From assembly GCA_041671565.1 (NCBI GenBank), contig JBAZBH010000005.1, forward strand, positions 3,083-67,082: DNA of 64,000 nucleotides, written 5' to 3'. The notes under the pieces were generated by a model. It made no database searches. It had not been told where the DNA came from and saw only the letters and a program-made list of their open reading frames with translations. Source of the DNA: Patescibacteria group bacterium (GTDB lineage Bacteria > Patescibacteriota > Patescibacteriia > JACRDY01). Below are positions 17,144 to 63,207 of the stretch, in pieces. Both the position numbers and the translations under genes were made by a program. The stretch's first letter is position 1, and every line of letters begins with the position of its first letter.

Positions 17144-17149
17144 GGGAGA

Positions 17150-17400
17150 ATCATGAATCAAGAATTAAGAATCAAGAAGGTCGGTAAACGGTGTTTAATC
17201 TTTAAGTCTAGTTAGAATGTCCAATATCCAAATCCCAATGTCCAATCAATGTCCAATGACCAAAGGTGGCTATCCCGAAGCGACCCCGTTGTGGCTTGGA
17301 CATTAGTCATTGGGTCCGCCGAATCGGCGGATGGTCATTGGAGCTTGGACATTGATCATTTATTCTTGATTCATGATTCTTAATTCTTGATTCTATTTTA
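17150..17400. repeat. about 240-nt intergenic imperfect palindrome built from GAATCAAGAAT and CCAATG words
   Basis: atcatgaatcaagaattaagaatcaagaa...tccaatatccaaatcccaatgtccaatcaatgtccaatgacc...ccgccgaatcggcgg...ttcttgattcatgattcttaattcttgattc; the arms are reverse complements. Confidence 0.65.
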
Positions 17401-18497
17401 TGAGAATATTACTGACCGGCGGCGGAACCATGGGCTCAGTCACGCCGCTCCTCGCCACGGCCGAACAATTAAAAACCGATGGCTTAACTGCTGAGTTCCT
17501 TTGGCTGGGGACCAAGGCCGGTCCGGAGCGGGCGGTGGTGGAACTGGCGGGCATCAAATTTCAGCCGATAATCGGTGGCAAATGGCGGCGGTATTTTTCC
17601 CTGCAAAATTTGGCGGCGCCGTTTTTGGTGCTGGCAGGATTTTTCCAAAGTTTAATAATAATTATAAAGTTTAAACCGCAGGTGATTTTAACGGCCGGGG
17701 CGTTTATCTCGGTGCCCGCAGTTTGGGCCGGCCGGTTTTGCCGTGTGCCGGTTTTGGTGCATCAGCAAGATTTAACGCCGGGACTCGCTAACCGGCTAAT
17801 GGCCCCCTTCGCGAGGAAAATCACCGTGGCGCTAGAAGATTCACTGAAAAATTATCCGACGGGCAAGACCAGTTGGATTGGCAATCCGGTGCGAGCGAGT
17901 TTGTTTCAGGGCGATCGGACGGCGGGCTTAAAGAAGTTTAATCTGCAGTCCGGCCGGCCGGTGGTATTAATCGTTGGCGGGGGAACAGGTTCGGTGGTTT
18001 TGAATGAAACAGTTGATCAAGCGTTGCCGGAGTTAGTTGGTTTTTGCCAGGTGATTCATCTAACCGGAATCAAGAATCACCCCAGCAGACGCGGGGCAAG
18101 CGAATTAAGAATCAAGAATCAGGCAGTAAAAGGATATTGTGCCTTTGAATTTTTAACTACGGAAATGAGGGATGCTTTGGCGGCAGCGGATATAGTTGTT
18201 TCTCGGGCAGGTATGGGTTTTTTGAGTGAACTGGCGGCGCTTGGCAAAGCGGTGATTATTGTGCCGATGGCAGACAGCCACCAAGAGGCCAACGCCAGTT
18301 ATTTTGCCCGGCGGAACGCGGCTGTGGTTTTGCCCCAGGCGGATTTGACGCCGGAAAACTTAACTCTAGCCGTTAAAAATCTTTTAGACGGCAAGTCGGA
18401 TAAAGCCAATTTAGAGCGGAATATTAAGTCGTTATTAAAGCCCGGCGCGGCTGAGGCGATGGTTAAGGCGGTGGTGGAGTTGACAAAAGGCCAGTGA
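17400..18497 (+). CDS. murG: UDP-GlcNAc:undecaprenyl-PP-MurNAc-pentapeptide GlcNAc transferase MurG
   Basis: RILLTGGGTMGSVTPLLA N-terminus, GT28 C-terminal domain; contains the in-frame repeat insertion at 18067..18123. Confidence 0.85.
   Translation: MRILLTGGGTMGSVTPLLATAEQLKTDGLTAEFLWLGTKAGPERAVVELAGIKFQPIIGGKWRRYFSLQNLAAPFLVLAGFFQSLIIIIKFKPQVILTAGAFISVPAVWAGRFCRVPVLVHQQDLTPGLANRLMAPFARKITVALEDSLKNYPTGKTSWIGNPVRASLFQGDRTAGLKKFNLQSGRPVVLIVGGGTGSVVLNETVDQALPELVGFCQVIHLTGIKNHPSRRGASELRIKNQAVKGYCAFEFLTTEMRDALAAADIVVSRAGMGFLSELAALGKAVIIVPMADSHQEANASYFARRNAAVVLPQADLTPENLTLAVKNLLDGKSDKANLERNIKSLLKPGAAEAMVKAVVELTKGQ
18067..18123. repeat. about 55-nt repeat element inserted in-frame in murG (core CACCCCAGCAGACGCGGGGCAAGCGAAT flanked by GAATCAAGAATC words)
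   Basis: Near-identical to 55942..55998 inside dnaX and related to 63130..63170 (intergenic); translates in the same frame in both genes (..HPSRRGASE.. / ..HPSIRGASE..). Confidence 0.7.
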
Positions 18498-29942: not shown

Positions 29943-31034
29943 ATGAAGCGCTGGTTGTTCAAATTTAGAGGTTTTGATTGGGTGCTTGCTCTGAGCGCCT
30001 TTTTATTAGTTTGTTTTGGTTTAGTCGCTATTTACAGTGTGACGCTGTCCGGCGAGGGAGCGAACTGGGATCTTTTGACCAGGCAATTGGTGGCGGTGGC
30101 GCTCGGCCTGGGGCTGTTTTTTGGCCTGGCGTTTTTTGACTATCAACTGCTGCAGAGCTACGCGCGGTGGCTTTACGGCTTTGGCTTACTGATTTTAACC
30201 GCGGTGCTGATTTTTGGTTCCAGTTTGCGTGGAACCAAGGGCTGGTTTGTAATCGGTGGCTGGAGTTTTCAGCCGGTGGAGGTGGTTAAAATCGTGGTAA
30301 TTATATTTTTAGCGTATTACTTTTCCCGCCAAAGCCGGCCGCTTAATCAATTAAAATATTTTATTATCAGCGGCCTTGGGGTTTTGGCGGCGTTTGCTTT
30401 AACAATCTTACAACCGGATTTCGGCTCGGGTTTGATCCTCTTTTTTCTCTGGCTGGGTGTGGTTTTGGTTATCGGTCCGCGGTGGTGGCACTTAGCGTTA
30501 CTTTTGGTCGCGGGACTAGCGGTTTTTCTACTGGCCTGGAACTTCGCTTTTGCGCCTTACCAAAAAGACCGCATCCGGACATTTCTCGATCCGGCGGCTG
30601 ACCCGCTGGGCGCCGGTTACAATGTCAGCCAGTCAATGATCGCCATTGGCGCCGGCGGTTGGACCGGCCAAGGTTTATCGCTCGGCTCGCAGTCGCAACT
30701 GCGGTTTTTGCCCGAAGCCCAGACCGACTTTGTCTTTGCGGTCATTGCCGAGGAGCTCGGTTTACTCGGCGTGTTACTGCTTCTCGGGCTGTGGTCGCTG
30801 ATTTTTTGGCGGCTATTTGTGATTGCCCGGCGGTGTCATGACGATTTTTCACTTTTTTTAATTTTGGGAATAATCCTTTTGTTTCTCATTCATCTCTTGA
30901 TGAATATCGGCATGAACCTAGGTTTGGCGCCGGTGACTGGCATTACTTTGCCCCTCGTCAGCTACGGCGGCAGTTCGTTGATTTTTATGCTGGGGGCGAT
31001 CGGGATAGCGGAAAGCGTTCGATTAAGGAATTAA
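29943..31034 (+). CDS. rodA: FtsW/RodA/SpoVE family protein (second SEDS paralogue, probable RodA)
   Basis: 10-TM SEDS protein with conserved C-terminal GGSSLI...G motif region; not located in the dcw cluster. Confidence 0.75.
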   Translation: MKRWLFKFRGFDWVLALSAFLLVCFGLVAIYSVTLSGEGANWDLLTRQLVAVALGLGLFFGLAFFDYQLLQSYARWLYGFGLLILTAVLIFGSSLRGTKGWFVIGGWSFQPVEVVKIVVIIFLAYYFSRQSRPLNQLKYFIISGLGVLAAFALTILQPDFGSGLILFFLWLGVVLVIGPRWWHLALLLVAGLAVFLLAWNFAFAPYQKDRIRTFLDPAADPLGAGYNVSQSMIAIGAGGWTGQGLSLGSQSQLRFLPEAQTDFVFAVIAEELGLLGVLLLLGLWSLIFWRLFVIARRCHDDFSLFLILGIILLFLIHLLMNIGMNLGLAPVTGITLPLVSYGGSSLIFMLGAIGIAESVRLRN

Positions 31035-31171
31035 TAATTAAAAATTAATAATTAAGAATTGAAGTCAAAAGTCAAAATTCAAAAGGCAAAAGTACATGTC
31101 AAAAGTAAAAAGTTTGACTATAGACATTCAAAATACTATAATAGAGTTATAAATATTAGCCAGATCAATAT

Positions 31172-33751: not shown

Positions 33752-34600
33752 TTAAGACCTTTTATTTTTTGTCAGAATTATCACCCGATCTCGGCCGGCG
33801 AGGTCGGTTTTTATTTTTAGCCGGTACGCGGGCAGGTGTTTTTGGGCGAGGAGTTTTAAGGCCGGGGCTTGGTCGCAGCCGATTTCCAGGAAAATCAGGC
33901 GGGGTTTTTGCCGGCGGGCGGCGAGTTGGCTGAAGAGTTGGCGAAAGAGTTTTAACCCGTCTGGCCCGCCGAGCAGGGCTTGCCGCGGCTCGGCTTGAAT
34001 GGACGGCTCGTTTTTGACTTCAGCGGCGGTTAGATAGGGCAGATTAGCAATTAAAATATCCAGTTTAATATTCTTTAACGGTTCCAGCAAGTTGCCCTGT
34101 TTAAACTTAATCTGGCCTTTGACGCCGTGGAGGCGGGCGTTTTTTTCGGCAACTTTTAGGGCAGGGCGGGAAATGTCAGTAGCATAGATTTTGGCTTGGG
34201 GCAGGTGTTTAGCAAGGGTGACGGCGATACAGCCGGAGCCGGTGGCAATATCGCCGATAGCCGATAGCCGATAGCTCTTAGCAATTCTTAAAACCTCATC
34301 AATTAATAATTCGGTGTCGGGGCGGGGGATAAGGGTGTTTTTATTGACTAGGAAATTTAGACCGTAAAACTCTTGCTGGCCGGTTAAATAAGCGACGGGC
34401 ACGCCTTTTAAACGGCGAGTAACTAGTAACTGGTAAGCGGTAACTAAGGATTGGTTAACTTTATATTCCGGATGGCTATACAAAAATTCCCGCGGTTTTT
34501 TTAAAACGAGGGAAAGGAGGATTTCGGCGTCCAAGGCTGGTGAAGATGAATAACGGTTTAGCCGTTTGGTGGTGATAGTTAAGAGTTGGCGAAGGTTCAT
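33752..34600 (-). CDS. prmC: release factor glutamine N5-methyltransferase PrmC (HemK)
   Basis: SAM motif I DIATGSGCIAV, motif IV ILIANLPYL (NPPY variant), located directly downstream of prfA; contains a 3x7-nt tandem repeat at 34253..34273. Confidence 0.75.
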   Translation of the reverse strand: MNLRQLLTITTKRLNRYSSSPALDAEILLSLVLKKPREFLYSHPEYKVNQSLVTAYQLLVTRRLKGVPVAYLTGQQEFYGLNFLVNKNTLIPRPDTELLIDEVLRIAKSYRLSAIGDIATGSGCIAVTLAKHLPQAKIYATDISRPALKVAEKNARLHGVKGQIKFKQGNLLEPLKNIKLDILIANLPYLTAAEVKNEPSIQAEPRQALLGGPDGLKLFRQLFSQLAARRQKPRLIFLEIGCDQAPALKLLAQKHLPAYRLKIKTDLAGRDRVIILTKNKRS

Positions 34601-44087: not shown

Positions 44088-45323
44088 ATGCGGTTATATT
44101 CCTTTATAGATCAATTAAAGACTACCGTCGCCACCCTCCGAGCCAATAAAGGCCGGTCGATTTTGACGCTCCTGGGGATTGTCATTGGCATCACTTCGGT
44201 GATTATTGTTTTCTCTGCCGGCCGGGCGCTCCAAGCCTTTATGGATGACCAAATGTCGTCTTTTGGCAGCAATTATATCCAGATCGAGCCGCGCACGCCG
44301 GGCCAGCAAAATCAAGGCACCGGGCCGAATGTCGTCACGACCTTGAAAGAGAGCGACCGCGAGGCAATCATGAAAATCCCGAATATCCGGACCGCCTACG
44401 GCGGCCTGATGGGCCAAGAAAAAATCACCTATCAGAGCGAGTCGGAAAAAGTCATGCTTTGGGGCGTGTCGCCGGAGTATTTGGATATTGACACCGGCGA
44501 GATCGCCGCTGGACGCTGGTTCACGCAGGAAGAAAATAATTCACAAGCCAAAGTGGCGGTTCTGGGGAGCGAGATTAAAGATACCTTGTTTGGGACCGGC
44601 GAATATATCGGCCGTGATGTCAAAATCGGCCGGCAGAATTTCAAAGTCATTGGCAGTTTCCAGTCGCGCGGGGGGCTCGGGTTTTTTAACATGGACAAAA
44701 TGGTTTGGCTGCCGGTCAAAACTCTCCAAAAAGAAATCTTGGGCGTGGATTACCTCAGCTGGATTACGGCGCAAATGGCGGATCCGACAGAGAGCGAATT
44801 CACCGCCGTCCAGGTCAATGATCTCCTTCGCGACCGGCATAATATCACCGACCCGGCGCGCGATGACTTTCAAGCGGTGACCCAAGAACAGGCGCAGGGG
44901 ATAGTGGATACGGTGGTCAACGGCATCACGGCGTTACTTTTGGTCTTGGTGGCGATTTCGCTCCTGGTCGGCGGCGTCGGCATTATGAATATCATGTATG
45001 TCACCGTGACCGAGCGGACTTATGAGATTGGCCTCCGCAAAGCGGTCGGCGCCACGGCCCGCGATATTCTCTGGCAGTTTCTCCTGGAAGCCGTCACCCT
45101 GACTTTCGCCGGCGGGGTCGTAGGAATCGTCTGCGGCGCGTTGGTGTCATTTGGCATTTCGCTTCTCGCTAACTTTTTTGGTTTTGCTTGGAAGTTTAGC
45201 CTGCCCCTCAACGGCATTTTGATCTCTTGTATTTTCTCGGTGCTGGTTGGGCTGATTTTCGGCCTATACCCGGCGCGTAAAGCGGCCAGGCTAGATCCGG
45301 TGGAGGCGCTGCGGAATGAGTAG
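44088..45323 (+). CDS. ABC transporter permease, FtsX/MacB-like (second copy)
   Basis: Paralogous to 42702..43952 (GGVGIMNIMYVTVTERTYEIGLRKAVGA). Confidence 0.8.
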   Translation: MRLYSFIDQLKTTVATLRANKGRSILTLLGIVIGITSVIIVFSAGRALQAFMDDQMSSFGSNYIQIEPRTPGQQNQGTGPNVVTTLKESDREAIMKIPNIRTAYGGLMGQEKITYQSESEKVMLWGVSPEYLDIDTGEIAAGRWFTQEENNSQAKVAVLGSEIKDTLFGTGEYIGRDVKIGRQNFKVIGSFQSRGGLGFFNMDKMVWLPVKTLQKEILGVDYLSWITAQMADPTESEFTAVQVNDLLRDRHNITDPARDDFQAVTQEQAQGIVDTVVNGITALLLVLVAISLLVGGVGIMNIMYVTVTERTYEIGLRKAVGATARDILWQFLLEAVTLTFAGGVVGIVCGALVSFGISLLANFFGFAWKFSLPLNGILISCIFSVLVGLIFGLYPARKAARLDPVEALRNE

Positions 45324-53538: not shown

Positions 53539-54633
53539 ATGGCAAAAGATTATTACGCTACCCTCGGCGTCGGGAAAGGCGCCAGCCAGGACGAGATTAA
53601 GAAGGCCTTCCGCGAGAAGGCCCATCTTTATCATCCGGATAAAAAAGGCGGCGATGAGGCGAAGTTTAAAGAAGCAAGCGAAGCCTACCAGACTCTCAGC
53701 AATCCGGAAAAACGGCAACAGTATGATCGTTTTGGTTCTGATGCCGGTTTTCAGGGTGGCGGCGCCGGTGGGTTCAATTGGCAAGATTTCGCGCGGCAAC
53801 AGGGCGGGTTTTCTTCTGGCGGCGCGGATTTCAACGGCGGTTTCGGCGATATTTTTGGTGATTTGGGCGAGATGTTTGGTTTTGGTGGCGGCCGGTCAGG
53901 CGGCCGGCGCGGGCCGCAGCGCGGCGAAGACATTCAGGCTGAGTTGGCAGTGGATTTTCTAGAAAGTGTTTTTGGCGCCGAGAAAACCGTGGAACTCCAA
54001 AAAACCATTGTCTGCGAGCATTGCCTTGGCAATGGCGCGGAGCCGGGCAGTAAAATCAATACCTGCTCAACTTGCGGCGGCTCGGGTCAGGTGGAGCAAG
54101 TCCAGCGGACGATACTTGGCAATATGCGGGTGGCGTCAGTTTGCCCGACGTGTAATGGCGAAGGCAAGAAAGCGGAAAAGCCCTGCAGTCGTTGCCGCGG
54201 CAAGGGCGTTTATTCCGACCGGCAAGCAATCAAGATTAAAATCCCGGCGGGTATTGCCAACGGCCAGAGCATTCGGCTCAGTGGCCAGGGCGAAGCTGGG
54301 GAGCGCGGCGCCGGCGCGGGCGACTTGTATATCAGTGTTAAAGTTAAAGCCGATCCGCGGTTCAAGCGGCAGGGCGATAATATCCTAACCACGGAGAAAA
54401 TCAGTTTTCGCCAGGCGGCCTTGGGCGACAAGATTGAAGTGGCGACGGTCCACGGTTCAGTGGTTTTGAAAATTCCCGATGGCACCCAGACCGGCAAAGT
54501 TTTCAAACTCAGCGGCAAAGGCGTGCCGCATTTGGGCGGCGGGGGAACGGGCGACCATTTGGTGGAGGTGGTGGTGGTGACACCGACGCGGCTAAGCCGG
54601 AGCCAGAAGAAGTTGATCGAAGGGCTGGAATAA
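53539..54633 (+). CDS. dnaJ: molecular chaperone DnaJ
   Basis: J-domain DYYATLGV...HPDK, Gly/Phe-rich region, four CxxCxGxG zinc-finger repeats, C-terminal domains. Confidence 0.9.
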   Translation: MAKDYYATLGVGKGASQDEIKKAFREKAHLYHPDKKGGDEAKFKEASEAYQTLSNPEKRQQYDRFGSDAGFQGGGAGGFNWQDFARQQGGFSSGGADFNGGFGDIFGDLGEMFGFGGGRSGGRRGPQRGEDIQAELAVDFLESVFGAEKTVELQKTIVCEHCLGNGAEPGSKINTCSTCGGSGQVEQVQRTILGNMRVASVCPTCNGEGKKAEKPCSRCRGKGVYSDRQAIKIKIPAGIANGQSIRLSGQGEAGERGAGAGDLYISVKVKADPRFKRQGDNILTTEKISFRQAALGDKIEVATVHGSVVLKIPDGTQTGKVFKLSGKGVPHLGGGGTGDHLVEVVVVTPTRLSRSQKKLIEGLE

Positions 54634-54635
54634 CA

Positions 54636-54786
54636 AAAGATTTAAGATTTAGGATTTAAGATTTAAGAATGGTCGGTAATCAGAGTTTAGACTAATAAAC
54701 CAAACTGAAAGTTCAAAATCTAAAGAATTAAGGTAATTCAAAACGGAGTTTATTCTTAAATCTTAAATCCTAAATCTTAAATCTCT
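54636..54786. repeat. intergenic word-palindrome (ATTTAAGATTT family)
   Basis: gatttaagatttaggatttaagatttaagaa ... ttcttaaatcttaaatcctaaatcttaaatc. Confidence 0.6.
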
Positions 54787-54839
54787 TCTAATTTTCACCT
54801 CTTTTATTCTTACCCAAATAATGCTAAGATTTCCTCATT

Positions 54840-56486
54840 ATGACCGTCAGCCTTTACCGCCAATATCGGCCGCAAACCTTTGCCGAAGTGGTGGGCCAAA
54901 ACCAAATCAAGGTGACACTGCAGAACGAAATTAAGCAGGGCAAAATCGCCCAGGCTTATTTGTTTTCTGGCCCGCGCGGCATTGGCAAAACCACCACCGC
55001 CCGATTGATGGCCAAAGCAGCCAACTGCGAAAAAAGAAAAGCGGGCGAGTCCGAGCCTTGCAACCATTGTGCCGCTTGCGAGGAGATCACCGGCGGTTCC
55101 AGCCTGGATGTTTTGGAGATTGATGCCGCCTCGCACACCGGCGTTGATAATGTCCGCGCCAATATCATTGAAAGCGCGCGCTTTGCGCCCAGCCGGCTGA
55201 AGAATAAAGTTTATATTATTGACGAAGTCCACATGCTTTCGACCGCGGCGTTTAACGCGCTCCTAAAAACTTTGGAAGAGCCACCGGCGAATGTGATTTT
55301 TATCCTTTGCACCACTGAGAGCCATAAACTTCCGCTGACGATTATTTCCCGTTGCCAGCGGTTTGATTTTCGCCGGGTGGCGTTTGGCGAAGTGGTGGAC
55401 CATTTGGCTTTCATCTGCCGCGAGGAAGGCGTCAGTTGCGACAAAGAAGTTTTGCAGAATATCGCCCGGCATTCTGAAGGTTATTTGCGCGACGCCGTGG
55501 GCCTTTGCGGCCAGTTGCTGTCGCTCGGTGAGAAGAAAATCACCTGGGAACAGGCGCAACTAGTGATGCCGCGGTCGAATTTTCTCTTAGTGGCGGAATT
55601 TTTGGAATATCTGGTTAACCGCGACACCGAGAAAGCTTTGCGCCTGGTTAACCGTTTGGTTGATGAAGGCGTTAACCTGAGCCAGTTTGTTCTGGACACG
55701 GTGGAGTTTTTACGGAAGCTTCTTTTAACCAAGGTTTCCGGCCGGCTGGACGAGTTCACTTTAGAATTAGATGAGGCGGGTGGCAAGAAATTAACCGCGA
55801 TTTTAGGGAGCCTGAGTTTAAGTGAGATCGCGTCTTGGGCTAATATCTTTATTAGCAAGAATCAGGCAATCAAACAGAGCGCCATTCCGCAGTTGCCGCT
55901 GGAATTGGCGGTGGTGGAGATTTGCGGAGAAACGGAAAATACAGAATCAAGAATCATGAAGCACCCCAGCATACGCGGGGCAAGCGAATCAAGAGTAGAA
56001 AGCCAGAAGGCAGAAATCAGAAAAGAGAAATTAGAAATAGGAAATACGAAACCTAGTACGCCGTCATCAGTAGTTAGTAATCAGCCAAAAATAGAAGTTC
56101 AGCCAACACCCAGTAAAAAAGGCGGCAAAGGCGCGGTCAAACTGGAAGAAGTGGAGGCTAAATGGGGTGAGTTTATCGCCAGCTTGAATGACAGCAACCA
56201 TTCTTTGTCGATGACGCTTCATGTTGGCCGGCCGCTAGCGGTGGACGGCGACACCGTGCGAGTGGGCTTTAAATACAAATTTCACAAGGAAATGATGGCT
56301 GAAAGCAAGAATCGGTTGACATTGTCCGAGGGTTTAAGTAAGATAATGGGCGTTAAACTCCTAGTTGAGCCGATAGTTGCTGAAAACTTAGTTTTCGATT
56401 CCAGTTCTAAGCCCAGCCCGGAAGCGCCGAGTGGCACGGGCGTCGCCGATGTGGCGAAAATGTTTGGGGGAAAAGTGATGGGGTAA
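54840..56486 (+). CDS. dnaX: DNA polymerase III subunit gamma/tau
   Basis: AAA+ clamp-loader motifs GPRGIGKTTTARLMAKAANC, Zn module CNHCAAC, DEVHML, SRC; contains the in-frame repeat at 55942..55998 and AGAAA-word repeats. Confidence 0.85.
   Translation: MTVSLYRQYRPQTFAEVVGQNQIKVTLQNEIKQGKIAQAYLFSGPRGIGKTTTARLMAKAANCEKRKAGESEPCNHCAACEEITGGSSLDVLEIDAASHTGVDNVRANIIESARFAPSRLKNKVYIIDEVHMLSTAAFNALLKTLEEPPANVIFILCTTESHKLPLTIISRCQRFDFRRVAFGEVVDHLAFICREEGVSCDKEVLQNIARHSEGYLRDAVGLCGQLLSLGEKKITWEQAQLVMPRSNFLLVAEFLEYLVNRDTEKALRLVNRLVDEGVNLSQFVLDTVEFLRKLLLTKVSGRLDEFTLELDEAGGKKLTAILGSLSLSEIASWANIFISKNQAIKQSAIPQLPLELAVVEICGETENTESRIMKHPSIRGASESRVESQKAEIRKEKLEIGNTKPSTPSSVVSNQPKIEVQPTPSKKGGKGAVKLEEVEAKWGEFIASLNDSNHSLSMTLHVGRPLAVDGDTVRVGFKYKFHKEMMAESKNRLTLSEGLSKIMGVKLLVEPIVAENLVFDSSSKPSPEAPSGTGVADVAKMFGGKVMG
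55942..55998. repeat. in-frame copy of the about 55-nt repeat element inside dnaX
   Basis: cagaatcaagaatcatgaagCACCCCAGCATACGCGGGGCAAGCGAATcaagagtag, near-identical to 18067..18123 in murG, same reading frame (..MKHPSIRGASESRVES..). Confidence 0.7.
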
Positions 56487-56632
56487 AAAATAATTTTTAA
56501 TTTTTAATTTAAAATTTCTAATCAATTTATAATTCTTAATTTTTAATTACCACGAACTTGGCTTTAGGTTTAAAAATTATAAATTAAACATTAGAAATTC
56601 ATTAAAAATTAAGAATTTTAAATTAAAAATTG
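56487..56632. repeat. AT-rich word-palindrome element, homologous to 33536..33690
   Basis: aatttttaatttttaatttaaaatttctaatcaa...aaattaaacattagaaattcattaaaaattaagaattttaaattaaaaattg. Confidence 0.55.
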
Positions 56633-56640
56633 TTGTTTAT

Positions 56641-56711
56641 TGGGAGATCGTCTAATGGTAGGACAACGGATTCTGGCTCCGTTTATCCAGGTTCGAATCC
56701 TGGTCTCCCAG
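56641..56711 (+). tRNA. tRNA-Gln (anticodon CTG)
   Basis: TGGGAGA acceptor, TCTAATGGTAGGA D-arm, anticodon stem-loop ACGGA-TTCTGGC-TCCGT, GGTTCGAATCC T-arm; body nearly identical to tRNA-Gln(TTG) at 24192. Confidence 0.8.
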
Positions 56712-56774
56712 TTTTAAAAATTGAGGTTCGCCCGCTCGTCGCGAAGCGCGAGCGGGTCCGCTCACGGCTTTGCC

Positions 56775-56791
56775 GATGAGCGGAAATCCTG
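56775..56791 (+). repeat. 17-nt direct duplicate of the tRNA-Gln 3' end (AATCCTGGTCTCCCAG) 64 nt downstream of the tRNA
   Basis: Exact repeat of 56695..56711; the intervening 63 nt form two perfect hairpins (cccgctcgtcgcgaagcgcgagcggg; tccgctcacggctttgccgatgagcgga). Confidence 0.6.
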
Positions 56792-56955
56792 GTCTCCCAG
56801 CCAAGAAATCAGTTTAAACAGCTGATTTTTTGTTAATAAAAAACAAGGCCGGGCGGCGACAGTTTGGTTAACGGCTGAGGCAAATGGTTGGCTGGTTCTA
56901 GGGCGGTTTTTATGATAGAATAAAAACGCTTGCCAAATAGTTAAATCTGGAATTT

Positions 56956-59094: not shown

Positions 59095-59250
59095 TAAGCC
59101 TCTGAACCTAATTAAAATGTCCAATATCCAAATCCCAATGTCCAATCAATGTCCAATGACCAAAGGTGGTAATTGGGTATTGGTTATTGGGATTTGATTG
59201 GTCATTGGAGCTTGGGCATTGGGCATTTTATAGGTAATTATAAAATTGTA
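59095..59250. repeat. intergenic word-palindrome (CCAATG family, same words as 17210..17290 and 41740..41830)
   Basis: aatgtccaatatccaaatcccaatgtccaatcaatgtccaatgaccaaaggtggtaattgggtattggttattgggatttgattggtcattggagcttgggcattgggcatttt. Confidence 0.65.
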
Positions 59251-59259
59251 ATTAAGTTT

Positions 59260-61377
59260 ATGTTAGATAAGCTATTTTCTCCTCGGTCGGTGGCCGTCAT
59301 CGGCGCCTCGCGCGATAAACAGAAGCTGGGCCATCAGGTGCTCGCTAATATCCTGAAATATGGCTATCGGGGCAAAGTTTATCCGGTTAATCCGGCGGCT
59401 GGCAAAATTTTGGGTTTGAAATGTTATCGCTCAGCCTTAGAAATCAAGGGCGCGGTTGATTTGGCGGTAGTGGCGGTGCCAGCCGCGGTGGTGCCACAAG
59501 TACTTGCCGAGTGCGGCCAGAAGAAAATTCCGTCTGCCATTGTGATTTCGGCCGGATTCAAAGAAATCGGCGGCGCCGGCGCGATTTTGGAAGCGGAGAT
59601 TAAAGCGATTGCCAAACAATATAGCATTAATCTTTTGGGGCCGAATTGCCTGGGGATTATGGATGTTGTTAGCCGCCTAAACGCTTCGTTTGCCGACGGT
59701 ATGATTAGTCCCGGCGGCGCGGCTTTCTTTTCCCAGTCCGGCGCGGTAGGCACAGCAATGTTGGACTGGTCCAAACAGAATAATTTTGGCTTTTCGCGGT
59801 TTATTAGCCTCGGCAATAAAGCCGATATTTCCGAAAATGAGATTTTGGAGTTTCTTGCTGAGGACAAAAATACCAAAGTGATCTTGGGTTATCTGGAAGG
59901 CTTTACCGACGGGCGGAAGTTTTTGGCAGTTTGCCAGAAAGCAACCGCTCTGAAGCCGGTGATTATTCTCAAAGCCGGCCGGACGGCAGCCGGGAAAAGG
60001 GCGATCACTTCCCATACCGGCGCGCTCGCCGGGCAGAATGAAGTGACCGCCGCCGCTCTCAAACAAGCCGGCGCGATTCAAGTTGATTCATTAAACGAGC
60101 TGTTTGACTACGCGCGGCTGTTCGCCAGTCAGCCCTTGATCCGGGGCAACCGGTTGGCAATTGTCGCTAATGCCGGCGGACCGAGCGTGATGGCAACTGA
60201 CGCGGTGGTAGAAAGCGGTTTGCAACTGGCTAAACTTTCTGACTCGACTCTAAAAAAATTAAAAGCGGGTTTACCGGCCACGGCCGCGATTCATAATCCC
60301 GTGGATTTAGTCGGTGACGCGCGGGCTGATCGGTTCGAGCTCGGCTTAAACGCGGTGCTGTCTGACAAAGCGGTTGACGCTGCGCTCGCGATTTTGACCC
60401 CGCAGACCATGACCGAGGTAACTAAAACCGCCGAGGTAATAGTTAGTTTGAGCCGGAAATATGGCAAAACCGTGGCGACGAGTTTTATCGGTGGGGCAAA
60501 AGTGGAACCGGGGATTAAAATTTTAACCACGGGCGGAGTGCCGAATTTTCTTTATCCGGAGGCGGGGGTGAGGGCGATGGGGGCAATGGCGGGGTATCAG
60601 AGAGCTAGAAAGTTAGAAAGCCAGAAAGTTAGGATGCGGGTGGTTGATTTAAAAACATGGAAAGTGGTGGGAGGGTTATTAAACGGGGGTGGGGAACAGG
60701 TGGGGTGGCAGACAGCTGAAGAAATACTGAAGATTTATAAAATCCCGATGGTTAAGTCGGCGGTGGCGGCGGATGCCGGGGTGGCGGTTAAACTGGCTGG
60801 CAAGTTTAAGTATCCGGTGGTGCTGAAAGTCGCGGCCAAGAAGCTCCTCCATAAAACCGACGCCGGCGGGGTGCTGGTTGGATTGAAAACCGCGGGCGAA
60901 GTTGAAACGGGCTTTAAAAAACTGAATAAAATCGCCAAAAAATTTGGCGGGGAAGTGTTAATCCAGCCGCAAATTCTGGGCGGGCGAGAGATAATTATGG
61001 GCGTCCGCCGCGACCCGCAGTTTGGGCCGGTGGTGATGTTTGGCCTAGGCGGGATTTACACGGAAATTTTGAAAGATGTGGTGTTCCGCGTGGCGCCGCT
61101 GGATCAGGCCGAGTCTTTAAAAATGATTCAGGAAATTAAGGCGTTCAAGCTGCTTAGCGGCGCGAGAGGGGAAAAAGGCGTTAAACTCGCGGCGCTCGCC
61201 GACATGCTCTGTAAACTTTCCGAGTTGGCAACGGACTTTCCGCAGATTGAGGAGGTGACGCTGAACCCGGTACTCGCTACAACTAAAGGTTGTTTGGCGG
61301 TAGATGTGAGAATAATTACGAATTACGAATTAAGAATTAAAGTCAAAAGGCAAAATTTAAAAGTTAAGGAGAATTAA
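59260..61377 (+). CDS. acetate--CoA ligase (ADP-forming) family protein (CoA-binding, succinyl-CoA-synthetase-like and ATP-grasp domains, fused)
   Basis: CoA-binding N-terminus (SPRSVAVIGASRD...GYRGKVYPVNP), ligase-CoA domain, C-terminal ATP-grasp (YPVVLKVAAKKLLHKTDAGGV). The start is taken at the ATG 59260 because the track start 59173 runs through the CCAATG palindrome. The C-terminal 20 aa are encoded by TACGAAT/AAGAATT word repeats. Confidence 0.7.
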   Translation: MLDKLFSPRSVAVIGASRDKQKLGHQVLANILKYGYRGKVYPVNPAAGKILGLKCYRSALEIKGAVDLAVVAVPAAVVPQVLAECGQKKIPSAIVISAGFKEIGGAGAILEAEIKAIAKQYSINLLGPNCLGIMDVVSRLNASFADGMISPGGAAFFSQSGAVGTAMLDWSKQNNFGFSRFISLGNKADISENEILEFLAEDKNTKVILGYLEGFTDGRKFLAVCQKATALKPVIILKAGRTAAGKRAITSHTGALAGQNEVTAAALKQAGAIQVDSLNELFDYARLFASQPLIRGNRLAIVANAGGPSVMATDAVVESGLQLAKLSDSTLKKLKAGLPATAAIHNPVDLVGDARADRFELGLNAVLSDKAVDAALAILTPQTMTEVTKTAEVIVSLSRKYGKTVATSFIGGAKVEPGIKILTTGGVPNFLYPEAGVRAMGAMAGYQRARKLESQKVRMRVVDLKTWKVVGGLLNGGGEQVGWQTAEEILKIYKIPMVKSAVAADAGVAVKLAGKFKYPVVLKVAAKKLLHKTDAGGVLVGLKTAGEVETGFKKLNKIAKKFGGEVLIQPQILGGREIIMGVRRDPQFGPVVMFGLGGIYTEILKDVVFRVAPLDQAESLKMIQEIKAFKLLSGARGEKGVKLAALADMLCKLSELATDFPQIEEVTLNPVLATTKGCLAVDVRIITNYELRIKVKRQNLKVKEN

Positions 61378-63040: not shown

Positions 63041-63207
63041 TGCCAATTATGCTAATTATTTGCTAGTATTTACTGATAATTCACGGAATTAGATTTATTC
63101 ATCTAACTGGAAGCGATGCGAATGCTACGAATTACCCCAGCATACGCGGGGCAGGCATGCGAATCTACGAATAATAAGGGATTTAATTAGCACAATTGGT
63201 AACTAAT

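Follow-up and report, generated by a model that had tools for sequence, protein, structure and literature searches.

It is already known that repeats are tolerated in permissive parts of proteins in other bacteria. The present case concerns a composite repeat segment lying in frame in dnaX, the gene for DNA polymerase III gamma/tau, on a 64 kb contig stretch of an uncultured Patescibacteria (candidate phyla radiation, CPR) bacterium. For this organism the analysis covered a stretch of 64,000 nucleotides (nt), termed the window. Among the described systems, repetitive extragenic palindromic sequences (REPs) are short, mostly extragenic palindromic repeats that also occur in frame in replication and repair genes and in truB, and they carry a conserved GTAG or CGTC tetranucleotide at one end (PMC3733652). 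The Rickettsia palindromic elements (RPEs) lie in frame inside the housekeeping genes of Rickettsia at function-compatible positions (PMC10969869). Heptamer tandem repeats, including the cyanobacterial short tandemly repeated repetitive sequences (STRRs), TAACTGA in the Beggiatoaceae and GGGNATC in Xanthomonas and Nostoc, are over-represented, mostly intergenic and often close to the ends of genes; they have been proposed to arise by polymerase slippage, and a minority of arrays overlap open reading frames (ORFs) (PMC4679880, PMC4692102). Tandem repeats within the ORFs of Borgs yield disordered, hydrophilic protein segments; the lengths of these intragenic units are always multiples of three, and the repeats are perfect and of recent origin (PMC9879509).

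Cyanobacteria and Escherichia coli provide further points of comparison. The small dispersed repeats (SDRs) that Elhai et al. 2008 described in cyanobacteria are reportedly hairpin elements of approximately 21-27 nt, characterized through comparisons of filled and empty sites, often nested in heptamer and other repeats, and with no known transposase. The dnaX gene of E. coli contains a programmed -1 frameshift, with an mRNA hairpin just after domain III, producing gamma. The literature searched contained no description of such heptamer-array and hairpin repeats in Patescibacteria or CPR.

The dnaX segment is better described as a 21-nt hairpin nested within a continuous heptamer array. The gene and the parts of the segment are as follows.

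54840..56486, plus strand: dnaX (DNA polymerase III gamma/tau), 548 amino acids, one continuous ORF reading through the repeats.
55926..56051, plus strand: composite repeat segment of 126 nt, codons 363-404 (GETENTESRIMKHPSIRGASESRVESQKAEIRKEKLEIGNTK), with 15 heptamer words and a nested 21-nt hairpin.
55926..55963, plus strand: left part of the array, GGAGAAA CGGAAAA TACAGAA TCAAGAA TCATGAA GCA-, including the GAATCAAGAATCA word family.
55964..55984, plus strand: GC-rich mini-hairpin core of 21 nt, CCCCAGCATACGCGGGGCAAG, translated (H)PSIRGA(S).
55985..56051, plus strand: right part of the array, -CGAA TCAAGAG TAGAAAG CCAGAAG GCAGAAA TCAGAAA AGAGAAA TTAGAAA TAGGAAA TACGAAA, with period 7 in Tandem Repeats Finder (TRF).

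When positions 55964-55984 are deleted in silico, the flanks join as 15 heptamers of the form NNNNGAA in a single phase, and the word GCACGAA is formed across the join (... TCATGAA GCACGAA TCAAGAG ...). Phase analysis of this core-less array gives a lag-7 identity of 0.64, with the other non-multiple lags at or below 0.38. The description of the hairpin as nested follows from this result, since removal of the core leaves the words in one unbroken phase. The original prediction had placed an in-frame repeat first and a run of AGAAA words after it. The DNA and peptide that it quoted, the repeat and the words are all real, but the words flank the GC-rich core on both sides and not downstream alone, and the unit is the 21 nt nested in the array. 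The translation across the segment reads ...TESRIMKHPSIRGASESRVESQKAEIRKEKLEIGN.... The reading frame is preserved by the 21-nt hairpin and equally by changes of three words at a time, as 3 x 7 = 21. From a reading of the sequence, the purine-rich orientation of the words encodes a peptide rich in K, E, R, S, N and Q with few stop codons, whereas GAATCAAGAATCA in reverse meets stops in two frames out of three. The core can be read through in all six frames.

The position of the segment in the protein was established from domain boundaries, homologs and a structural model. Pfam assigns DNA_pol3_delta2, DNAX_ATPase_lid, DNA_pol3_gamma3 (domain III, amino acids 251-363) and DnaX_C (amino acids 433-532) to the product, which is annotated as 'MAG: DNA polymerase III subunit gamma/tau [Patescibacteria group bacterium]' (MAG, metagenome-assembled genome). 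Its residues 5-300 align with residues 6-298 of E. coli gamma/tau, for which clamp-loader structures have been solved. The stretch between ...QLPLELAVVEICG and the C-terminal domain is hypervariable in both length and sequence among 18 homologs. In the AlphaFold2 model the last helix of domain III spans residues 352-363, and amino acids 365-431 have a predicted local distance difference test (pLDDT) score below 50. This hypervariability and the low pLDDT support the assignment of the repeat segment to a putatively disordered, variable linker between clamp-loader domain III and DnaX_C, and the placement of the words in that linker, as first proposed, is borne out.

The core recurs elsewhere in the window. 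With up to two mismatches, CACCCCAGCAnACGCGGGGCAAGC has three copies, at 18078 (murG), 55962 (dnaX) and 63133 (an intergenic spacer), all on the plus strand, and 100 shuffles produced none. The unit can be written as CCCCAGCATACGCGGGGCA(G/A)G, 21 nt in length, and its fold, CCCC-A-GC[AUAC]GC-GGGG, formed in every context tested; the local fold of the dnaX region gave z = -2.2 over 131 nt. Across 44 nt, the copies in murG and dnaX match at 91%. The other two copies, and a hairpin upstream of murG, are listed here.

18067..18121, plus strand: murG copy, an in-frame array of the GAATCAA family (5 units; IKNHPSRRGASELRIKNQ) with the core nested at 18080-18100.
63097..63175, plus strand: intergenic core copy, with the canonical core at 63135-63155 within GCGAATG/CTACGAAT words.
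17147..17395, no strand assigned: nested hairpin in the ftsW-murG spacer upstream of murG, whose outer arms, 17147-17179 and 17359-17395, belong to the GAATCAA word family.

The in-frame core of murG translates as ...HLTGIKNHPSRRGASELRIKNQ..., and the array without the core reads GAATCAA GAATCAC GAATTAA GAATCAA GAATCAG, with a lag-7 identity of 0.76. By a count made by eye on the alignment, approximately 28 of 30 positions of this internal array are identical to an arm of the spacer hairpin some 900 nt upstream. So close a match with an intergenic arm nearby suggests that arrays exchange sequence, for instance by gene conversion. It has also been noted that murG 18054-18069 and intergenic 63097-63112 share ATTCATCTAACYGGAA (15 of 16 positions) a few nucleotides upstream of the core, where in murG it is the conserved coding sequence for IHLTG. 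A weaker version of this stretch, TCCATCTGGCTGGAA, is found in the related repeat of L017 (L-numbers denote loci outside the window, being homologs in relatives or genome or metagenome contigs). Judged on sequence, the shared stretch may be a trace of exchange, guided by homology, between that repeat family and murG.

The metagenome contig L017 carries a long hairpin of GCGATGC/GAATGCTAC words, as in the intergenic copy of the window, with the core in the 5′ arm and not in the 3′ arm. The reverse complement of the 3′ arm aligns to window positions 63095-63178 with one clean 21-nt gap exactly at the core, and this gap identifies the core as a discrete 21-nt unit. In the fold of L017 (z = -5.1) the core branches off sideways from the long stem. 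A target-site duplication was considered at GAATCAAGA(ATCA), which recurs 42 nt apart around the core in dnaX and murG, and was rejected; the spacing arises automatically from a 21-nt insert in a periodic array. With respect to MITEs (miniature transposable elements with inverted repeats), there are no terminal inverted repeats beyond the hairpin, and the flanking direct repeats GAATCAAGA are words of the host array. At L005 a 10-nt direct repeat, AAAGATTCAC, lies 81 nt apart around the core plus words.

Word arrays are abundant across the window. At a strict threshold there are 22 period-7 and 3 period-8 arrays, none of periods 6 or 9, and none in shuffles; a looser threshold returns 39 period-7 arrays (1720 nt) compared with approximately 0.7 in block shuffles. 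The non-coding share of the window, 14.6%, holds 73% of the array bases, which corresponds to an approximately 16-fold higher density than in coding DNA. Arrays are typically paired as the arms of long inverted repeats in the spaces between genes, including both flanks of dnaX. Just eight arrays are situated well inside coding sequence, the two of dnaX being the longest, and others touch gene ends.

The periodicity of the dnaX words was compared with what the encoded peptide alone would give. Over 55995-56054 the lag-7 identity is 0.68, with all other lags from 1 to 12 at or below 0.38, and this value was reached in 0 of 5000 synonymous-codon resamplings, 0 of 5000 amino-acid shuffles and 0 of 5000 codon-order shuffles (p < 2e-4). 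The best lag-7 window, 0.77, was never attained when the whole gene was resampled synonymously. The period of 7 in dnaX is a DNA-level signal and not a by-product of K/E-rich codons. The segment 60595-60636 of the acetyl-CoA synthetase (ACS)-like gene has a period of 8 (identity 0.65, p=0.0006), and the 15-mer TAGAAAGCCAGAARG, common to the dnaX and ACS-like arrays, has 3 matches against 0.19 expected. It is extremely improbable that the pattern is an artefact, be it of chance and composition, whereby linkers rich in K, E and R would use AAA, GAA and AGA codons and make the 'AGAAA words' illusory, or of a chimeric assembly. The linkers are indeed rich in K, E, R and Q in all homologs, which raises the background A/G content. 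However, resampling never matched the observed lag-7 identities, lags 7 and 8 alone are enriched, a single word is read in three different frames, and the core has three copies where none is expected. In addition, an identical DnaX protein is encoded on three contigs, from NCBI, JGI and ENA (e.g., ENA ERZ27249449 k141_1120077). The artefact is excluded by the shuffles, the lag specificity, the codon resampling and the three contig records.

The product of the ACS-like gene is not an AMP-forming ACS but an ADP-forming acetate-CoA ligase in which the alpha and beta parts are fused. Its true start is the ATG at 59260; a start at TTG 59173 would be a spurious extension through the hairpin arm 59172-59231. 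Repeats touch the gene at two further places.

60597..60634, plus strand: period-8 array TAGAAAGT TAGAAAGC CAGAAAGT TAGGATGC, encoding the alpha-beta linker YQRARKLESQKVRM.
61310..61374, plus strand: word repeat of intergenic type, read through as an 18-amino-acid C-terminal tail of the ligase, TNYELRIKVKRQNLKVKEN.

The period-8 array lies between Ligase_CoA_2 (300-449) and ATP-grasp_5 (482-686) in the Pfam assignment. Homologs of the enzyme have a K/R-rich segment of equal length at this position, and since their linkers are of the same length, the array is a linker but not an insertion. The expectation that the same word style would recur in the interdomain linker of this gene was therefore correct as to the shared word family and the true interdomain position, although the period is 8, the array is not an insertion and the enzyme is of the ADP-forming kind. 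The 18-amino-acid tail (region 61310-61377) is missing from all 15 aligned homologs, and its repeat family is also found at 31033-31085 (lag-7 identity 0.64-0.77).

In murG the copy follows the conserved HxTG motif, where MurG of P. aeruginosa has a helix. Patescibacteria homologs have a short variable loop at this site, and the window protein is 9 residues longer than its closest relatives. The sole low-confidence stretch of the MurG model (mean pLDDT 89), amino acids 226-239 (18075-18116), is the element itself. On the model and the homologs, the murG copy is predicted to form a surface loop inside the Rossmann-type C-domain, and not an interdomain linker. The prmC gene contains two heptamer arrays.

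34245-34287 and 34414-34446, minus strand: prmC arrays, both inside the gene.

One of these is a near-perfect (GCCGATA)x3.3 encoding SYRLSAIGDIA, just before the glycine motif that binds S-adenosylmethionine (SAM), at the edge of the folded methyltransferase domain. With regard to structured regions, the dnaX and ACS arrays are in linkers, while the murG copy is in a surface loop and this prmC array is at the edge of a fold. A restriction to linkers only is too strong a claim because the prmC array is in a folded region. A T-rich period-7 array is also present at 45143-45172 (GGTGTCA TTTGGCA TTTCGCT TCTCGCT) within an FtsX-type permease gene (44088-45323), in the FtsX membrane domain, where it reads LVSFGISLLAN. 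Hydrophobic segments may allow arrays to persist in the pyrimidine-rich orientation.

The nearest homologs are only 61-65% identical and none has the core, yet the sister genomes carry arrays of their own at the same three sites, namely the murG loop, the ACS linker and the dnaX linker.

murG loop, L024: GGAGATC GGAAATC AGAAATC GGAAATC AGAAATC, lag 7 = 0.83.
murG loop, L026: lag 7 = 0.71.
ACS linker, L025: lag 8 = 0.74.
ACS linker, L022: AAAACAAG x5, lag 8 = 0.88.
dnaX linker, L002: lag 7 = 0.60, weaker (p = 0.07).

The arrays of L024, L026, L025 and L022 are significant against a gene-wide synonymous null. The period is constant for each site across the relatives, being 7 in murG and dnaX and 8 in ACS. 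In the more distant homologs (L021, L023, L027, L028) there is no array at the three sites. Given that sister genomes have arrays at the same three sites, the arrays are long-term residents and not accidents of one genome. As the sister genes have arrays but no core, the hairpin would most simply be a later addition, nested into the array in the lineage of the window. An alignment of the dnaX linker DNA between the window and L002 is uninformative because the two are too diverged. A word family of a sister genome, AAAACAAN, is found in both its ACS linker and the N-terminus of its GrpE. In L002, the closest relative, a heptamer hairpin of TCGCTGT / GCGAACC words (2786-2912) abuts the grpE start codon, and the GrpE N-terminus is encoded by (AACAAAAC)x4.8, the word family seen in the ACS linker of that genome.

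Outside the window, the pattern ACCCCAGCANACGCGGGGCARGC has six exact matches in species-representative genomes (four in one Candidatus Moranbacteria MAG, one in a Saccharibacteria MAG and one in candidate division FCPU426) and 12 further matches in JGI/ENA metagenome contigs. All 18 have T at the free N position and 17 have G at the R position, making them the same 23-mer; L011 has A. The exact 23-nt core spans several Patescibacteria and one non-CPR phylum, and the flanks of the 18 loci are mutually unrelated. Its orientation is mostly sense to the neighbouring genes, in approximately 11 of 13 contexts. The core is situated beside other word arrays at L017, L020 and L005, and upstream of terminator-like hairpins at L009 and L020.

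At least four of the Moranbacteria exact-match loci are in intergenic spacers by rough ORF calls. In Saccharibacteria truB (L008 1880-2692, minus strand) the core is in the C-terminal tail after TruB_C_2, in the same frame as in dnaX, reading HPSIRGAG. The TruB_N match of this gene is also split by an insert of approximately 40 amino acids with RHSGLDPESRQ, which looks like another translated hairpin repeat. In FCPU426 the core lies antisense inside an ORF that exceeds 2666 codons, where it reads ACPAYAGV, with adjoining CCTTGGN words and a 10-nt direct repeat 81 nt apart. The Moranbacteria MAG CAITOC01 and matching JGI contigs (L003, L004, L006, L007, L012-L016, L018, L019) share a conserved multi-stem element of approximately 130 nt at several intergenic sites (e.g., after rplL), in which the 23-mer core is one hairpin and one loop is variable. 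With only five variants and one compensatory pair, it does not inform on covariation. The element, which has no match in Rfam, could be an undescribed small RNA or a mobile element.

Origins in known families were also considered for the core. The 23-mer has no matches in viral contigs and the Moranbacteria element none in plasmid or phage collections, and a phage or plasmid origin was rejected on these grounds. At the gathering score, Rfam returned tRNAs only for the window and six loci. With E-values up to 5, four loci gave weak, chance-like hairpin matches near the core that were well below the gathering score. A known RNA family was likewise rejected for the core, there being no Rfam match at or near that score.

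With this information, the repeat can be placed beside the described systems. The core resembles a REP in being an imperfect palindrome of 21-23 nt that forms a hairpin, within the REP range of 20-40 nt. REPs reach high copy numbers in a genome and are mainly extragenic; the core has three copies in the 64 kb, two of them intragenic. It differs in having no GTAG or CGTC at the foot of the hairpin on either strand, with conserved flanks A-...-CAGGC instead, and in being nested in heptamer arrays, whereas REPs are often dimers. We know of no REP-associated tyrosine transposase (RAYT) for the core. The likeness to RPEs resides in its in-frame presence in unrelated genes at permissive sites (the dnaX linker, murG loop and truB tail), as well as inside a giant ORF. 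However, RPEs are approximately 100-150 bp long and have a conserved ORF-compatible peptide of their own, compared with 21 nt for the core and 44 nt for the unit shared by murG and dnaX. From both families it is set apart by an exact sequence that is common to several phyla and not species-specific.

The arrays of the window, like STRRs, consist of head-to-tail 7-nt units, are far above chance and are biased to non-coding DNA. In contrast to STRRs, they comprise many word families instead of one, are usually paired as long inverted-repeat hairpins, and in some cases are held stably within the reading frame of essential genes, at sites that are orthologous between several genomes. As in Borgs, repeat DNA inside ORFs gives disordered hydrophilic segments, but the units here are of 7 nt (dnaX, murG) or 8 nt (ACS), imperfect, and old enough to be shared among genomes whose proteins are approximately 60-65% identical. 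The dnaX repeat system works like the REP, RPE and Borg families without belonging to them, as it lacks the REP head, the RPE size and the Borg unit length. A hairpin just after domain III of dnaX also recalls the E. coli signal; unlike that signal it has no slippery heptamer or A-run beside it, and it is a dispersed repeat found in unrelated genes too. The cyanobacterial SDRs would be the closest analogue of a 21-nt core nested in heptamer arrays, with a clean 21-nt gap and in-phase heptamers on both sides in dnaX and murG, although in another phylum and with another sequence.

The dnaX segment probably consists of repeat DNA native to this genome, selfish or neutral, that is tolerated in frame where a flexible hydrophilic spacer suffices. 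We infer the order of events, the mechanisms of spread and the neutrality of the repeat as follows. The first layer is the 15-unit array of 7-nt words, of the same class as the period-7/8 arrays that fill the intergenic hairpins of this organism. Arrays at the DnaX linker, MurG loop and ACS linker would predate the split from the closest known relatives and would change through slipped-strand mispairing and gene conversion with other arrays. The second layer, the 21-nt GC-rich mini-hairpin, is a very small dispersed repeat that would have arrived later in the lineage of the window. The peptide would tether domain III to the C-terminal domain as a disordered, hydrophilic stretch in which length and flexibility would matter and sequence would not. 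A specific function of the repeat in DnaX would be unnecessary for this explanation.

Several observations weigh against the explanation by tolerated repeat DNA. No mobilising enzyme has been identified for the hairpin, with no test for a RAYT gene made, and the nearest homologs, at 61-65% identity, provide no empty site for dnaX or murG themselves. The exact 23-nt identity across phyla fits poorly with junk DNA and hints at a conserved partner or recent horizontal spread, and the mostly sense orientation of the core would fit a role at the RNA level. In addition, the murG loops of L024 and L026, compared over only 13 codons, have a nucleotide identity of 0.77 and a third-position identity of 0.85 against 0.46 for the whole gene, while the amino-acid identity is 0.46 against 0.65. 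Conservation of the loop DNA above that of the protein hints at constraint on the nucleic acid.

The original prediction went further in suggesting that the words are recruited as protein linkers. Such adaptive recruitment, in which selection favours word arrays because they offer a reduced proteome flexible, hydrophilic linkers and tails that are ready for use, with a function at the protein level, is unlikely. The recurrence of arrays with different words at the same three permissive sites in sister genomes would be expected of it, as would the translated orientation, which is always purine-rich and hydrophilic in dnaX, murG and ACS. Word families are moreover shared between disordered segments, as in dnaX and ACS here and in the GrpE N-terminus and ACS of a sister genome, and Borg tandem repeats have been argued to create new disordered regions (PMC9879509). 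Nevertheless, the check on word occurrence found the arrays concentrated in non-coding DNA and left adaptation unsupported. Distant homologs have ordinary linkers of similar length, and therefore the array adds nothing detectable; the length of the ACS linker is itself unchanged relative to homologs. The units of 7 and 8 are not multiples of three, unlike the Borg case with its inferred amino-acid-repeat selection, and the murG peptide of L024 and L026 is less conserved than its DNA. The prmC array in a folded region and the ligase array merely read through as a tail that homologs lack are further points against selection for linkers. The recruitment claim goes beyond the evidence, while the feature itself is real, well defined and statistically well supported, and was correctly located.

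A function at the level of nucleic acid, with the hairpin or the words in dnaX mRNA or DNA acting as a factor-binding site, a translational pause or a device for a gamma-like short product, is quite unlikely. The hairpin is located 11 codons past the final helix of domain III, at the point where gamma is made in E. coli; a +1 shift at the hairpin would run for 12 codons before a stop, and a -1 shift for 32. The identity of the core over 23 nt across phyla, its place as a stem of the Moranbacteria multi-stem element, its mostly sense orientation and the DNA conservation of the sister murG arrays are also in keeping with such a function. However, codons 330-445 contain no X XXY YYZ slippery site, the single A6 run is at 56115, 130 nt downstream, and the same hairpin is found in murG, the truB tail and intergenic DNA, where the logic of gamma and tau does not apply. 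A gamma/tau frameshift device is ruled out by the missing slippery site and by the presence of the hairpin in unrelated genes. The sister dnaX genes without the hairpin, the weak local fold and the lack of an Rfam family also speak against a nucleic-acid role more generally. It is conceivable, though doubtful, that the 21-nt hairpin is a trans-phylum nano-element, either mobile without an enzyme of its own or a recognition hairpin for a conserved factor. It would then reside in or seed period-7 arrays that are actively maintained at the nucleic-acid level, through period-7 slippage and conversion or a binding factor, even in essential genes.

The surroundings of dnaX contain repeats of the intergenic kind.

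54629..54793, no strand assigned: word hairpin of the GATTTAA family in the dnaJ-dnaX spacer, with arms 93% complementary.
56484..56639, no strand assigned: word hairpin of the AATTTTT/TTAAAAA family directly downstream of dnaX, with 65-nt arms, 80% complementary.

The second hairpin is followed by tRNA-Gln(CTG) at 56640-56712, whose final 16 nt, AATCCTGGTCTCCCAG, are repeated at 56785-56800 and then followed by CCA and a terminator-like hairpin (region 56640-56835). The 73 nt between the 3′ end of the tRNA and the 16-nt repeat form two GC-rich hairpins, and in the minimum-energy fold (z = -7) the second 16-nt copy is the partner of the 5′ acceptor strand. The arrangement is possibly what remains of an integration at the 3′ end of the tRNA, or else an insertion past the T-arm.

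The residual novelty of these findings is in the exact cross-phylum 23-mer and in the fact that non-triplet arrays have persisted at orthologous positions of essential genes. For annotation, it is of note that repeat segments inflate and distort ORFs, as with the spurious N-terminal extension and the read-through tail of the ligase. For repeat biology, a system of heptamer arrays and nano-hairpins, so far described mainly from cyanobacteria, is now placed in Patescibacteria. Arrays of 7- and 8-nt units and a 21-nt hairpin repeat can persist in frame over long evolutionary periods in essential genes of a minimal-genome bacterium, as in dnaX, murG and the ADP-forming acetate-CoA ligase, and this bears on the origin and turnover of low-complexity linkers in protein evolution. 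Something new, for example a conserved partner for binding or a way of moving, could be concealed at one point alone, the exact conservation of the 23-mer across phyla. If the hairpin were indeed a trans-phylum nano-element, reduced genomes would have in their repeat DNA a permanent supply of disordered protein segments.

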